DNA of 24,934 nucleotides from Rhodanobacteraceae bacterium (GCA_043737435.1 JAYTAO010000283.1:1-24934); one strand, 5' to 3'. Positions 16,284 through 22,049 are shown, numbered from the stretch's first letter. Translations and numbers: made by a program. Notes: generated by a model not told the origin, from the sequence alone.

Positions 16284-18128
16284 ATGAGTTATCAAGTACT
16301 TGCACGTAAGTGGCGGCCGCGAAGTTTTGCTGAACTCATGGGACAAGAGCATGTTGTACGCGCGCTGACAGGCGGTTTGAGCCAGGGGCGTTTGCACCAT
16401 GCCTTTTTGTTTACCGGTACCCGCGGTGTGGGCAAAACAACAATCGCACGGATTATTGCGAAAGCGCTGAACTGTGAGATCGGTGTAACCGCAGTTCCCT
16501 GTGGTGTTTGTAACAGCTGCCGAGATATTGATGTCGGACGATTCCCGGATCTTATTGAAATTGATGCTGCGTCCCGAACCAAAGTTGACGATACACGTGA
16601 AATTTTGGATAACGTGATGTATGCGCCTTCCCGCGGGCGCTTTAAGGTCTATCTGATTGACGAAGTGCATATGCTTTCTACGCACAGCTTTAACGCTTTG
16701 TTAAAAACTTTGGAGGAGCCTCCCGAACACGTTAAGTTTTTACTAGCCACGACAGACCCGCAAAAATTGCCGGTAACTGTACTTTCCCGATGCCTAAAAT
16801 TTCATTTGAAGCGTCTGACGGTTCCCCAAATTACGCAACAAATGCGCCACATCCTAAACGCGGAAGAGATTGACTTTGATGAAGAGGCAATTGATGAGCT
16901 AGCGCGGGGCGCGGATGGGTCAATGCGCGATGGCTTGAGCCTGCTCGATCAAGCCTTGGCATTTGGTGCCGGAAAAGTAGAAACGATACCGACTCGTGAA
17001 ATGTTGGGAACTATCTCAAAAGAAGGCGTGTTAGACCTTTTGGAGGCCCTTAGTCTTAATAGTGCGGAACAACTTTCCGAAAAGCTCGCGAATTTAGCCG
17101 ATTTTGGTGGAAGTTACGTGCAAGTAATCGCTCGTTTGATGGAGCACTTGCATCAGTTAGCGTTTTTACAATTGGTTGGCTCGCATTCTAAGCAGCTGCT
17201 GGATGTGCCGCCACGCTTGGCCGCGATGGTTTCGCGCTTTAGCCCTGAAGATTTGCAAATTAAATTCCAGTTTGCAAATTTAGGCGCGAAAGAGATTGCT
17301 GGTGCGCCTGATGCAAAAATCGCATTTGAAATGTGCTTGCTGCGTATGCTGGCGTTTGCCGAAGTTGACGCCGGCGGGAATGGGCCTCCCGATGAGCGAC
17401 ACCATAGGATTGAGTCAGATTCGACAAAACAAGCGTCAGCCAGCGTGGCAGCCGCGCCGCCGGGAAAAACTGATGGCGACGGCACAGCGCGTGCCGTCGC
17501 CTCCCGTACTGATATCAAAGTCAGCCATTCTAGCGTTGTAGTCCTGCTAAACCCGGCGCAGTCAAACCGATCAGATTTGGAAATACATCATTCGTCGAAC
17601 AACGATTTCAAGCCAGTTGCGGAAAACCAGATAGCACAATTATTAGACCCTGCAGGTGCTGTGTCCGCGCCGTCTGAATTACTGGGCGTGCCAGAAGCGC
17701 AATCCGAATCCGAATCCGTGCCCGTGACTCTGTCCGCGCGCTGGCAGCGCTTGGTGGCCACTTTGCCACTTCCCCCAGGCGCGCTGCGCGAGTTTGCACA
17801 CAATTCGCTAGCGCGAAGCTGGCAACATGGCGCCTTAACTTTGACTGTCGACGCAGCACATAGCAGCTTGGCAAGTGCCGGGAATGTCCAACTACTTGCG
17901 CAATTTATTGAGCAAAGCTTAGGCCACACGTTAGCGATTCAAATCGTCGTCGCGGACGCTGATTTGTCGGCTAGCCCGGCCCACGTCAATGCACGTGAAT
18001 TCGCTTCCCGCGCGCACGTATTTGAAAACTCTATTACTGAGCGCCCGCTGGTGCGTGATCTAATCCACCAGCTCAGTGCGGCTGTAGTGCCTGGGTCTAT
18101 TTACTTCTCGGGATCAAGGGCGGCTTAA
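16284..18128 (+). CDS. dnaX: DNA polymerase III subunit tau (and probably gamma), 614 aa
   Basis: MSYQVLARKWRP, Walker A GTRGVGKT, Zn module CEIGVTAVPCGVCNSC, Walker B IDEVH, SRC and GSMRD motifs. Domain III ends near residue 358 (LLRMLAF), followed by a low-complexity linker and a C-terminal tau-like domain (WQRLV...LREFAHNS). Confidence 0.97.
   Translation: MSYQVLARKWRPRSFAELMGQEHVVRALTGGLSQGRLHHAFLFTGTRGVGKTTIARIIAKALNCEIGVTAVPCGVCNSCRDIDVGRFPDLIEIDAASRTKVDDTREILDNVMYAPSRGRFKVYLIDEVHMLSTHSFNALLKTLEEPPEHVKFLLATTDPQKLPVTVLSRCLKFHLKRLTVPQITQQMRHILNAEEIDFDEEAIDELARGADGSMRDGLSLLDQALAFGAGKVETIPTREMLGTISKEGVLDLLEALSLNSAEQLSEKLANLADFGGSYVQVIARLMEHLHQLAFLQLVGSHSKQLLDVPPRLAAMVSRFSPEDLQIKFQFANLGAKEIAGAPDAKIAFEMCLLRMLAFAEVDAGGNGPPDERHHRIESDSTKQASASVAAAPPGKTDGDGTARAVASRTDIKVSHSSVVVLLNPAQSNRSDLEIHHSSNNDFKPVAENQIAQLLDPAGAVSAPSELLGVPEAQSESESVPVTLSARWQRLVATLPLPPGALREFAHNSLARSWQHGALTLTVDAAHSSLASAGNVQLLAQFIEQSLGHTLAIQIVVADADLSASPAHVNAREFASRAHVFENSITERPLVRDLIHQLSAAVVPGSIYFSGSRAA
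17462..17501 (+). other. Candidate programmed -1 ribosomal frameshift cassette in dnaX
   Basis: In-frame heptamer G_GGA_AAA (17462-17468), 6-nt spacer ACTGAT, perfect 11-bp stem GGCGACGGCAC (17475-17485) / loop AGCGC / GTGCCGTCGCC (17491-17501). The -1 frame reads GGG AAA AAC TGA (stop 17471-17473). Confidence 0.75.
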
Positions 18129-18178: not shown

Positions 18179-20734
18179 CTATTCTTCGAAGCCGTCACCG
18201 AACAAATTTTCTCCAAGCAATTCGAAAACTGCGCCTTCTTGCGGATTTAGCGTAAATACGCCCGGCGCGCCAAACAGCGCTAGGCCAGAAGGTGACGCAG
18301 CCACGAACCGGCCGGTTGTGGCGCGCGCGATTGGAGGGGCTGGCAAAATAGTCGCTACTTTAAAGTGTGGCGCAATAAACCCCGCACCGATATCGGGTAA
18401 GCCGCTGGCATCTACACCAATGGCACCAATGACCACTCCATCAGGATATGCCGCAAGGGAAGTAGAAAACTGAGTGCCAGCGGCGGTAATTGGGCTCGAA
18501 ATGCTTCGCACGAGCGTCCAGTCGCCAAATACACCACCCGGCACAGGTGGGCGAAATTCTAACGCACGACCAACAGCAGGTGCTCCAAACTCTGTGGTGA
18601 AAGGTGAGCCGACATAGGCGCGGCTTGGATTTTTACCTAGGGCGATGGCAAAACCAAAGCCATCATCAGCAGCGCCATTTGGATCTTTTAGGCTTTGACT
18701 GTAACTCCAATCATTGCCGCCCGGCCCGGCAGTGAATAAAAAAGCTCGGCCTCCAGCATCACTGTCCTTACGAACAGCACCGGGAGCACCGATAAGTGCA
18801 GTGTCGCCCGAAAGATCCACAAAGGCAGCGAAGGTATCGAACGCAGCACTTTCCGGAGGCCGCAGCATAGGCCCGCCTTGAAATACTCCGTTGCGATCAC
18901 GCCTGAAGAACACTACGCCGCCTTGTTCACTAAAAAATTCACTGTCACCGCGTGCGCCGACAGCAATCCTTTCCCCATCAATGGCAACAGCAAAGCCAAA
19001 AAATGCACGATATCGCGGCTGTGGCGACACGAGTTTTTGTAGGAACTGCCAAGATACATCGCCTCTACTACGTTCGACGCGTTTGAATACATAAGCAGAA
19101 CCAGCGTCCACAGCGCCTTCGACAACGTCCCAGTAGGAACCCACCACAGCAAGGTCACCATCAATGTCTACTGAGACACCAAAGCGCTGTTCTTCTTCAA
19201 CGTCGGGCGGCGTAAGTGTTGCCTCAAGCTGCCAGCCAGCCCGGTTGCGACGATAAATATAAGCTTCACCGGTTTCAACTCCGCTCGCGCTGTCAACTAA
19301 AAAAGCACCCACAATGGCATGGTCGCCTTTCGCGCTGTGGAGTTCACTCGGTTTTTGTGACATCGCAAGTGCTGAGCCAAAACGATCAAACGCAGCCCCT
19401 CGTCCACTATCAACGCTCGTAATTAGCTCACCAATTGAGCTGAATCGATAGGCGCGCCCTTGAGTGGGATGCCCTGCCGCTTCGCTATAAGGCGCACCCA
19501 CATAAATTCCACTCGGGGCTATTGCAACACTGTAACCAAAAGCGTCCGCGCGAGGCGTATTGCCTATTGCAGGTGGCCGCAATGTAGTGTTGAGTTGCCA
19601 ACGACCCGCGGCGGCTGAGCTATAAAGATGCACAGCACCTTCGCCGTCCGTTCTGTTTAGGCGTGCAGCCGGTGCTGATACGCTAACGGTGTTTGCGAAA
19701 GCGGTAATAATTTCACCAAATTGTTCCACTGGCCCGCCCGAACTCGGGGCATCAAGCGTTTGTACACTCGCCCCGGTTGAAACGTCGAACACCATGACTT
19801 GACCAACCGCACCGTTTAAATCAGGTGTGCCTACCCAAAGCTGGGTACCTTGATAAGCCAAGCCTCGGCCAAAACTCGGTTGTCCGGCTAGGCGCCCAAT
19901 TTCAAATGCGGGCGTGCTCAAGGCATAGCGCACGACCGTGCCGCTCGCACCCACCGGCGCACCAATCGCAAGTTCACTTGCGGTATTGGTACCGCTGACA
20001 GCCACGCTAATGCCAAAGTTGCTCTCGGAGGATAGTCCGAGCCCCTGCAAGCGTTGAGGCATGCTCAAACTCAAGCCGGTGCGTCGATATAAGTATGCGG
20101 CCGATTCGCCAGGCGCGCCCACCACTAAAAAATCCTGATTAAGTGCTGTGCTTATTCCAAAACGCGCGCCACCGACAGCGCGTGCGCCTGGGACTTCGCC
20201 ATTGAACTGCCAAGCTTCGCCGACCCGCAAATAGCGAAACACGGTTCCGGCATCGGAATCAAAATTAATTTTGCCCACGCCCGGCGCACCAATAAAAAGT
20301 TCAGTGGCATCGCAACTTATGCTTATGCCAAATAGCGCACTTTGCTCTACGCCCGGTAACGATATTTTGCCTAACGGTCGCAGATCTTTCCCAATCACTT
20401 GATACCGATAGACGCTGCCAGCGGATTGACCATTGGCGCTGTTGGGAATTGGCGTCTGATCGCCGGTAGCGGCAACTAATAGCTCGCCATTACACAGTGC
20501 AACACGTGCACCGTAACTATCGCCTACCGCACCTTCGCCGGTAGTAGGCGGGCGTATATCTCGCGCACCTAAATTTGGAAAAGTCGCCGCAGCGGCAAGC
20601 GTGCTTAAAACTAACAACGCGCAAACTACAGCTAATTTCAGAATATTAGCGGCCTTGGGTAAAACAAACCCGCGCTTTTGCTGGCAAGCAAAAAAGCGAG
20701 CGTGTGTATAAAAGTCGGAAAGTGATAGCCTCAT
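18179..20734 (-). CDS. Secreted FG-GAP (integrin-alpha-like) repeat protein, 14 repeats, probably two 7-bladed beta-propellers; ~851 aa
   Basis: Recurrent FGxSVA...xxVGAP...G.VY.F units and a signal peptide LKLAVVCALLVLSTLAAA|ATF. The start is moved to ATG 20734 because the longer ORF (20842) overlaps the kynU start. C-terminus is GENLFGDGFEE. Confidence 0.88.
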   Translation of the reverse strand: MRLSLSDFYTHARFFACQQKRGFVLPKAANILKLAVVCALLVLSTLAAAATFPNLGARDIRPPTTGEGAVGDSYGARVALCNGELLVAATGDQTPIPNSANGQSAGSVYRYQVIGKDLRPLGKISLPGVEQSALFGISISCDATELFIGAPGVGKINFDSDAGTVFRYLRVGEAWQFNGEVPGARAVGGARFGISTALNQDFLVVGAPGESAAYLYRRTGLSLSMPQRLQGLGLSSESNFGISVAVSGTNTASELAIGAPVGASGTVVRYALSTPAFEIGRLAGQPSFGRGLAYQGTQLWVGTPDLNGAVGQVMVFDVSTGASVQTLDAPSSGGPVEQFGEIITAFANTVSVSAPAARLNRTDGEGAVHLYSSAAAGRWQLNTTLRPPAIGNTPRADAFGYSVAIAPSGIYVGAPYSEAAGHPTQGRAYRFSSIGELITSVDSGRGAAFDRFGSALAMSQKPSELHSAKGDHAIVGAFLVDSASGVETGEAYIYRRNRAGWQLEATLTPPDVEEEQRFGVSVDIDGDLAVVGSYWDVVEGAVDAGSAYVFKRVERSRGDVSWQFLQKLVSPQPRYRAFFGFAVAIDGERIAVGARGDSEFFSEQGGVVFFRRDRNGVFQGGPMLRPPESAAFDTFAAFVDLSGDTALIGAPGAVRKDSDAGGRAFLFTAGPGGNDWSYSQSLKDPNGAADDGFGFAIALGKNPSRAYVGSPFTTEFGAPAVGRALEFRPPVPGGVFGDWTLVRSISSPITAAGTQFSTSLAAYPDGVVIGAIGVDASGLPDIGAGFIAPHFKVATILPAPPIARATTGRFVAASPSGLALFGAPGVFTLNPQEGAVFELLGENLFGDGFEE

Positions 20735-20768
20735 GGCATAAGTTTGATAGATGTTGGGTGATATAACC

Positions 20769-22049
20769 ATGAGTACTGCCGTCAATTCCGGGGCCTTGTT
20801 AAGCTCGGGCTCTGGCACCAATGCGTTGGAGTGTTTGCGCACCGAATTCGCGATTCCTGAGGTGTATGGCCATCCGGTACATTATTTTTGCGGTAATTCT
20901 TTGGGTTTGATGCCGAAAGCTGCGAAAGCGATGGTCGTAGAAGCTCTAGATAGTTGGGCAGCTGAGGGTGTGGAGGGTCACTTTAAAGGGGCGGCGCCTT
21001 GGATGCGCTATCACGAATTGGTGCGCGACGATTTGGCAACGCTGGTCGGTGCAAAGCCTATTGAAGTTGTCGCGATGAATTCCTTGACGGTAAATTTACA
21101 TTTGCTGATGACCAGTTTCTTCAGACCGAACGCCGCGCGCAACGTCATTTTAATGGAGGCCCGTGCTTTTCCGTCGGATCGGCACGCGGTGGAATCGCAG
21201 CTCAAGCTGCATGGTTTGGACGTGAATACCTGCTTGGTCGAGCTGATCCCCGAAGCTGGCTCCGATCTTTTGCAGGAAAGCACCATTGACTCAGCGATTG
21301 CGGCGCTCGGGGAACGCCTAGCTTTGGTGCTCATGCCAGGCGTGCAATATGCCACCGGGCAGGCGTTTGATTTGACGCGTATTAGTAAAGCTGCGCATGC
21401 AGTCGGTGCCATGGCCGGCTTTGATTTGGCGCACGCGGTGGGTAATTTGGTCGTCAATTTGCATGATTCTGACGCGGATTTTGCGGTTTGGTGCAGCTAC
21501 AAATATCTCAACGGTGGCCCAGGTGCGGTCGCCGGTGCATTCGTGCATGAGCGCCATGCCAACAGTGATCGGATCCGTCTAGCCGGTTGGTGGGGGCATC
21601 GTGCAGATACGCGCTTTCAAATGCGGCCAAATTTTGAGCCCACGCCCGGAGCTGATGGCTGGCAACTGTCTAATCCGCCAATTTTTTCCCTTGCGCCGCT
21701 GCGCGCTTCTTTAGCGCAATTTACTCGGGTCGGCATTACAAATTTGCGCCAGCGTTCGATCCTATTGACCTCCGCACTCAGTGCCAAAATTACTGAGGAA
21801 TTAAGCGATTTTGTCCAAATCATTACGCCGCTAGACCCAGCACAGCGGGGCTGTCAGTTAAGTTTGCGGGTGCTGCGTGGGCAACAGGCCGGGCGCGCGT
21901 GTTTTCAGGCTTTGGCGGCAGCCCACATCGTCGCCGATTGGCGCGAGCCCGACGTGATCCGCGTAGCACCGGCACCGTTGTACAACACACTGGAGGACAT
22001 CTATGCCTTGGTTGCAGCGATGCGTCTCCACTTTGTTGGATGCGCCTAG
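20769..22049 (+). CDS. kynU: Kynureninase (PLP-dependent)
   Basis: YFCGNSLGLMP, EVVAMNSLTVNLHLLMTSFFRP, AFPSD, GFDLAHAVGN, WCSYKYLNGGPG (PLP lysine), GWWGH, RGCQLS and DWREPDVIRVAPAPLYN. ATG 20769 has GGTGA upstream; the ORF could also start at 20751. Confidence 0.96.
   Translation: MSTAVNSGALLSSGSGTNALECLRTEFAIPEVYGHPVHYFCGNSLGLMPKAAKAMVVEALDSWAAEGVEGHFKGAAPWMRYHELVRDDLATLVGAKPIEVVAMNSLTVNLHLLMTSFFRPNAARNVILMEARAFPSDRHAVESQLKLHGLDVNTCLVELIPEAGSDLLQESTIDSAIAALGERLALVLMPGVQYATGQAFDLTRISKAAHAVGAMAGFDLAHAVGNLVVNLHDSDADFAVWCSYKYLNGGPGAVAGAFVHERHANSDRIRLAGWWGHRADTRFQMRPNFEPTPGADGWQLSNPPIFSLAPLRASLAQFTRVGITNLRQRSILLTSALSAKITEELSDFVQIITPLDPAQRGCQLSLRVLRGQQAGRACFQALAAAHIVADWREPDVIRVAPAPLYNTLEDIYALVAAMRLHFVGCA

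Follow-up and report, generated by a model that had tools for sequence, protein, structure and literature searches.

A predicted -1 frameshift cassette with a G_GGA_AAA slip site in dnaX of a narrow Xanthomonadales clade

Does the dnaX gene of a Rhodanobacteraceae bacterium carry a signal for making a second, shorter DnaX protein, and, if it does, does that signal share its origin with the one known from Escherichia coli (E. coli)? The question is raised by a stretch of 24,934 nucleotides (nt) (GCA_043737435.1 JAYTAO010000283.1:1-24934; this whole stretch is referred to as the window), in whose dnaX gene a first, sequence-only reading had pointed out a possible slip site and interpreted it as a variant or independently evolved tau/gamma switch. 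The role of gamma, the short DnaX product, has long been debated. Our answer is that a programmed -1 ribosomal frameshift cassette would split dnaX into tau (614 amino acids, aa) and a gamma-like protein of 396 aa, having arisen within a narrow Xanthomonadales clade independently of the E. coli element. To this reading we assign a probability of roughly 0.8; all comparative tests supported the earlier interpretation, the production of the short protein being predicted. The anatomy, the conservation and the covariation described here were computed, and the mechanism we infer from that anatomy and from analogy to E. coli dnaX and to insertion sequence (IS) elements. The gene and the parts of the cassette, in positions of the window, are as follows.

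16284-18128, plus strand: dnaX, encoding DNA polymerase III tau (614 aa) in the zero frame (open reading frame list and translation).
17445-17450, plus strand: GUGGCA, a degenerate remnant located where a Shine-Dalgarno (SD)-like element stands in some relatives (anti-SD duplex, -2.1 kcal/mol).
17457-17465, plus strand: the Pro-Pro-Gly codons CCG CCG GGA entering the slip site, read from the sequence, a possible ribosome-slowing motif.
17462-17468, plus strand: slippery heptamer G_GGA_AAA in X_XXY_YYZ phase, with P-site GGA to GGG and A-site AAA to AAA.
17468-17473, plus strand: the -1-frame codon AAC (Asn396) and the stop TGA (17471-17473), read from the sequence.
17469-17474, plus strand: spacer of 6 nt between heptamer and stem, read from the sequence.
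17475-17501, plus strand: putative stimulatory hairpin, with arms at 17475-17485 and 17491-17501 and the loop at 17486-17490.

The protein shows the Pfam domains DNA_pol3_delta2, DNAX_ATPase_lid, DNA_pol3_gamma3 (residues 237-360) and DNA_pol3_tau_5 (486-601, tau domain V), and its residues 1-358 are 58% identical to residues 1-359 of E. coli DnaX, the alignment ending there. The heptamer lies in the linker beyond clamp-loader domain III (whose end falls at about 358-360), where the zero frame reads CCG (P393) GGA (G394) AAA (K395) ACT GAT, codons 393-395 covering the slip site. In the -1 frame, the same letters give GGG AAA AAC TGA, and the predicted product, ending in ...PPGKN, would consist of domains I-III, about 35 linker residues and a single -1-frame Asn. 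The stem downstream has 11 perfect pairs (nine G-C and two A-U) around a 5-nt loop, and folding of 17469-17510 gives a minimum free energy (MFE) of -24.5 kcal/mol (z = -4.5), a stability equalled by 0 of 200 shuffles and similar when a wider stretch is folded; the same method gives -19.7 kcal/mol for the corresponding region of E. coli dnaX. All these elements had been described in the sequence-only reading and could be reproduced: the in-frame heptamer in the linker at exactly these positions, the 6 nt followed by a perfect 11-bp stem, the TGA one codon into the -1 frame with a protein of about 396 aa (...PGKN) versus 614 aa, and the end of that protein just past domain III, placed by the earlier reading at about residue 358 (the Pfam domains I-III reach about 360). 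The same cassette sequence, its A run free of insertions and deletions, is found in contigs from four sediment-metagenome runs belonging to two studies.

Is this arrangement a peculiarity of one genome or is it kept in relatives? The comparison set was made of GTDB genomes (the window's genus comprising 7 species genomes, and its family 27) and of metagenome contigs, to which metagenome proteins sharing 59-90% identity with the window's DnaX were traced back. The same dnaX cassette is present in four of the six other genomes of the genus; of the other two, G005 lacks it and G003 has no dnaX contig. Altogether, 17 distinct sequences carry the cassette, and they fall into three types: type A (n = 12), with a stem of the GGCGACGGC type; type B (n = 3), whose heptamer is that of type A and whose hairpin is another, longer one (GGCTCTGG / CCAGAGCC plus an inner stem); and type C (n = 2), with G_GGA_AAG and two further hairpin sequences. 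The heptamer is therefore GGGAAAA in 15 of the 17 and GGGAAAG in two, the -1 stop stands exactly one codon past it in every case while all three stop codons are used (TGA in 6, TAG in 3, TAA in 8), and the hairpin always begins 5-6 nt past it. In types B and C the stem sequences and the encoded peptides differ, and hairpins still form at the same spacing, with z values of -3.0 to -5.4. Contigs of co-occurring related organisms match the window only over 17442-17501 (4-5 differences) and diverge on both sides. One such co-occurring contig, from sediment runs, has a further stem variant, whose 3' arm, GCGCCGTCGCC, follows a different loop. On this comparative evidence, conservation by chance appears very unlikely.

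In a maximum-likelihood tree of domains I-III, all cassette-bearing proteins fall into one clade (support 96/97). Three clade members lack the cassette (P0015/P0017 and P0022), and so do the sister groups, including the congener G005; the status of P0022, P0017 and P0023 was judged from the protein sequence alone. The simplest history consists of one gain and two losses: the cassette would have arisen in a narrow uncultured Xanthomonadales clade, would have persisted through a remodelling of its hairpin, and would have been lost in two sublineages.

How would such a cassette work? When the P site holds GGA and the A site AAA, the G+C-rich hairpin, which begins 6 nt further on, would stand at the mRNA entrance of the ribosome and hinder translocation; tRNA-Gly could then re-pair from GGA to GGG and tRNA-Lys(UUU) from AAA to AAA, after which the ribosome would decode AAC and terminate at UGA, yielding the 396-aa gamma. 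The choice of the last letter of the heptamer has a possible rationale in the tRNA repertoire. AAG owes its special shiftiness in E. coli to the single tRNA-Lys of that organism (PMC5009743). The genome studied here encodes both tRNA-Lys(UUU) and tRNA-Lys(CUU), and AAA_A would be favoured over AAA_G because a separate tRNA-Lys(CUU) reads AAG and because the re-pairing on AAA_A is fully cognate. Regarding upstream stimulation, the sequence-only reading had seen no clear internal SD, which is correct for the window: its anti-SD duplex (GUGGC) reaches -2.1 kcal/mol versus -7.4 kcal/mol in E. coli dnaX. Seven of the relatives (L058, L059, L060, L063, L064, L066 and L067) have an SD-like GGAG(G)/GAGGU 9-12 nt upstream of the heptamer, with duplexes of -5.6 to -9.5 kcal/mol. 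Of the 12 closest proteins, 11 have PPGK, which is absent (there is no second Pro) in the sublineages with a good SD-like element. A Pro-Pro-Gly pause motif may have replaced the SD stimulator, the independent transitions being few, and in the window's sublineage the Pro-Pro-Gly run before the site might, speculatively, add a pause.

Would the shift be frequent enough to supply gamma? In E. coli reporters, -1 frameshifting on G_GGA_AAA reached 0.12% alone, 0.51% with the IS911 signals and 17% with the IS3 pseudoknot, the values for A_AAA_AAG in the same reporters being 0.29, 4.3 and 39% (PMC4066793 supplement). The best surviving alternative, which we consider unlikely, accepts that the frameshift is real and holds it to be low-level, tuning tau output or mRNA fate and making no stoichiometric gamma for the clamp loader. 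That would fit the window's want of an SD-like stimulator, a slip site that is moderate in E. coli and the two losses within the clade. Nevertheless, a stop one codon past the slip and a site just after domain III reproduce the design of E. coli gamma, the hairpin is stronger than that of E. coli by the MFE values given above, and purifying selection on every element implies that the product, or the event, matters.

The proposal that the cassette provides the cell with a gamma-like protein has, in turn, several points to contend with. The upstream SD-like stimulator, needed in E. coli for full efficiency, is weak or absent in the window, although such an element is not required for this class of signals, as the cso2 case without one illustrates (PMC5009743). 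In E. coli reporters, the slip site itself falls short of A_AAA_AAG by a factor of 2-8 (PMC4066793). The losses in P0015/P0017 and P0022, together with the absence in G005, mean that the product is dispensable or replaceable. The sequences compared are related, and their counts therefore overstate the number of independent events, though synonymous sites are near saturation. Finally, the locus is found in DNA metagenome runs only and its host is uncultured, gamma production being a prediction from the sequence.

A more basic doubt is whether the conserved letters serve the RNA at all. GGGAAAA could simply be the codons of a conserved Gly-Lys of the linker, and the hairpin and the stop could be by-products of a peptide GK-x-N/D-G-D-G...A-V-A; the peptide around the site is indeed more conserved than the remaining linker. 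However, we regard such a coincidence as very improbable. In a codon alignment of 15 full-length genes, among 256 columns with an invariant residue and synonymous choices, only two keep a single codon, one of them being the GGA of the slip-site Gly394; more than one codon occurs in each of the other 18 of the 19 invariant Gly columns. Immediately before the heptamer, the residue may be P, L or T, yet its codon invariably has G in third position. Immediately after it, the residue is T, I, F, A or P, and the third base is always the T with which the -1 stop begins; the next codon encodes D, S, N or E and always starts with GA, AG or AA, so that exchanges among TGA, TAG and TAA keep the stop and change the zero-frame residue. 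The sequences are not recent copies of one another, since mean third-position identity in domains I-III is 0.49. Residue identity in the flanking linker is 0.1-0.3.

The stem leads to the same conclusion. The covariation statistics, as well as a covariance model (R1), were based on the 12 type-A sequences only; a MAFFT alignment of the three types, in which the 3' arms of types B and C were misaligned, was dropped from counting and model building. In type A, 98.5% of the cells are in standard pairs and four of the 11 pairs have changed on both sides, whereas sliding the partners by 1-3 columns as a control leaves only 21-63% paired. In P0016, three pairs have changed on both sides, altering residues (G to R, V to I), and the stem is still perfect; such two-sided changes alter the peptide and keep the pairing, and types B and C make hairpins out of different peptides. 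Codon invariance, third positions and stem covariation together point to selection acting on the RNA. They also bear out what the sequence-only reading had expected of an alignment of dnaX orthologs: a heptamer kept at the nucleotide level where synonymous sites elsewhere are saturated, a -1 stop kept in the same position with all three stop codons in use, covariation in the stem, and a location in an otherwise unalignable linker.

Two readings that do away with the ribosome altogether fare worse still. The palindrome and the T5 of the minus strand could form an intrinsic terminator against antisense transcription from the convergent gene (18179-20842, minus strand), and a terminator scan does list a minus-strand stem at 17501-17475 followed by ATCAGTTTTT. 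Yet the T run begins 5 nt past the stem and has only five T (three in type C), the phase of the heptamer and the conserved -1 stop would be left unexplained, and relatives in which dnaX is followed by ybaB on the same strand, with no convergent gene, retain the cassette; we give this idea very little credence and judge the terminator a by-product, its T run being the slip-site A run read on the opposite strand. Slippage during transcription of those A residues, by which mRNAs with one A more or less would encode the short product, has precedents in the A9-A10 runs of Thermus and other dnaX genes (PMC3711429, PMC5009743) and possible counterparts in A9 runs in the dnaX linker of another family of the order, but it is hardly credible for a run of only A5 (A3 in the G_GGA_AAG variants) when about 8 or more are needed, and a downstream hairpin and an X_XXY_YYZ phase point to slippage by the ribosome and not by the polymerase.

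Judged by its letters alone, the heptamer of the proposed frameshift cassette is neither rare nor informative (two copies in the window versus 4.4 expected); it is the combination that distinguishes it. The window's genome has 84 in-frame G_GGA_AAR sites in long open reading frames; of these, the dnaX site is followed by the most stable fold, and a single other one combines a -1 stop within two codons with an MFE of -20 kcal/mol or lower. This other site, 15 codons before the stop of a hisA-like gene (G000 contig C279, minus strand, about 598-1446, ...LLEGKFSF...), is an in-phase G_GGA_AAA followed one codon later by a -1 TAG, with an MFE of -20.3 kcal/mol; its fold is loose and irregular, and it was rejected as probably due to chance. 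Across the 27 family genomes, R1 scores 58-70 bits at dnaX of five cassette-bearing congeners and at most 27 bits elsewhere; built on type-A sequences only, it cannot detect types B and C.

If the cassette is what it appears to be, where does it come from? Outside the genus, the dnaX linkers were read in 113 species genomes, representing 12 families of the order, and no G_GGA_AAR cassette was found. RF00382, the Rfam family of the E. coli-type element, gives no match in window positions 17300-17650 even at E <= 10 (its gathering score being 35 bits). Its cut-off is not passed in any of 121 genomes from the order, and the E. coli control scores 96.8 bits. A permissive search of Rfam returned only a minus-strand Burkholderiales-2 match of 18 bits against a cut-off of 68, which is at chance level and was discarded. 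The position in the linker is also another one, the slip site lying 37 residues past the last alignable residue here versus 71 in E. coli. On account of the narrow clade, the absence of an RF00382 match and the different linker position, we favour an origin of the cassette separate from that of the enterobacterial A_AAA_AAG element, so that the independence proposed by the sequence-only reading would hold. Taking this further, we lean, on balance, towards the view that the tau/gamma switch was invented a second time, recently, in a genus-level uncultured Xanthomonadales clade, converging on the layout known from E. coli, its slip site being one that suits decoding by two tRNA-Lys; since then the hairpin would have been replaced at least twice, AAA would have changed to AAG, the SD-like helper would have decayed where Pro-Pro-Gly arose, and the cassette would have been lost twice.

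Some further observations on dnaX were made in the course of these comparisons. In another family of the order, four loci have an A9 run in the dnaX linker (L162 in G055, L169 in G046, L183 in G117 and L186 in G064), 16-23 codons past domain III and with -1 stops 1-4 codons later, which looks like Thermus-type slippage or an A_AAA_AAA frameshift site; L146 (G103) has an A7 run in its dnaX linker. In a Colwellia metagenome-assembled genome (L038, Alteromonadales), codon 526 of dnaX is at a canonical A_AAA_AAG with a -1 stop two codons later, an expected E. coli-type site. Just upstream of dnaX, a high-GC genus of the family (L009, L012, L013, L014, L022) has a conserved stretch, CCCCCCG CGTCG.. 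GGCCGTCAACCCCGCCAGGCCCGGAAGGGAGCAACGG, which we take to be a putative signal recognition particle RNA gene, as it resembles the one commonly located there.

How does the cassette stand among the systems already described? For dnaX, these comprise A_AAA_AAG frameshifting (enterobacteria, Vibrio, Neisseria), slippage on A runs in Thermus, two-ORF (open reading frame) "reversed" genes and proteolysis in Caulobacter (PMC3711429, PMC5009743). The closest is E. coli-type dnaX (RF00382; Escherichia, Salmonella, Vibrio, Neisseria and others), with the same gene, the same predicted outcome of a short product ending after domain III, and the same layout of an in-phase heptamer, one -1 codon, a stop, a 5-6 nt spacer and a stem-loop of the 11-bp class. 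It differs in that the heptamer here is G_GGA_AAA instead of A_AAA_AAG and that the window has no functional SD-like element, and the window's cassette is not a member of the Rfam family. The slip site belongs to the class found in the tail assembly chaperone G/GT of lambda-like phages (G_GGA_AAG) and in the IS3/IS1 families (G_GGA_AAR); IS elements use G_GGA_AAA and G_GGA_AAG, both measured as competent in E. coli (PMC4066793). In those systems, however, the shift extends the protein into a second ORF, whereas here the -1 frame closes after one codon and would truncate a cellular replication protein, whose gene is the chromosomal dnaX, adjoined by ybaB in relatives, with no mobile-element or phage context. 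Two DnaX products are likewise made in Thermus thermophilus (A9 slippage) and from the two-ORF "reversed" dnaX (Antonov et al. 2013), but Thermus needs a homopolymer of at least 8 and the "reversed" gene requires a shift to make tau, while in the window the zero frame already encodes tau and the A run has only five letters. In Caulobacter crescentus, the short DnaX comes from a single ORF through proteolysis of tau by ClpXP (PMC5009743), a post-translational route with no recoding signal in the mRNA. In the motif screen of Sharma et al., dnaX appears only under A_AAA_AAG, G_GGA_AAA not being among the patterns screened, and the literature searched, which left subscription-only papers and RECODE outside, contained no link between dnaX and G_GGA_AAA/G and no Xanthomonadales dnaX frameshift.

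An independent origin where relatives lack the switch argues that a short DnaX is itself selected and is not an enterobacterial accident. The slip-site sequence of dnaX would not be fixed and appears to follow the tRNA-Lys repertoire, and the stimulatory hairpins would be exchanged in the course of evolution, with heptamer and stop remaining in place. The predicted gamma is missed by annotation pipelines and by Rfam, as it would be by motif screens of the A_AAA_AAG kind. Furthermore, the natural variants (three hairpin types, AAA or AAG, presence or absence of the SD-like element and of Pro-Pro-Gly, and the losses) offer graded material on how a -1 frameshift is tuned. If the second invention is true, this clade would document, in a natural series, how a programmed frameshift in an essential gene is born, tuned and lost.

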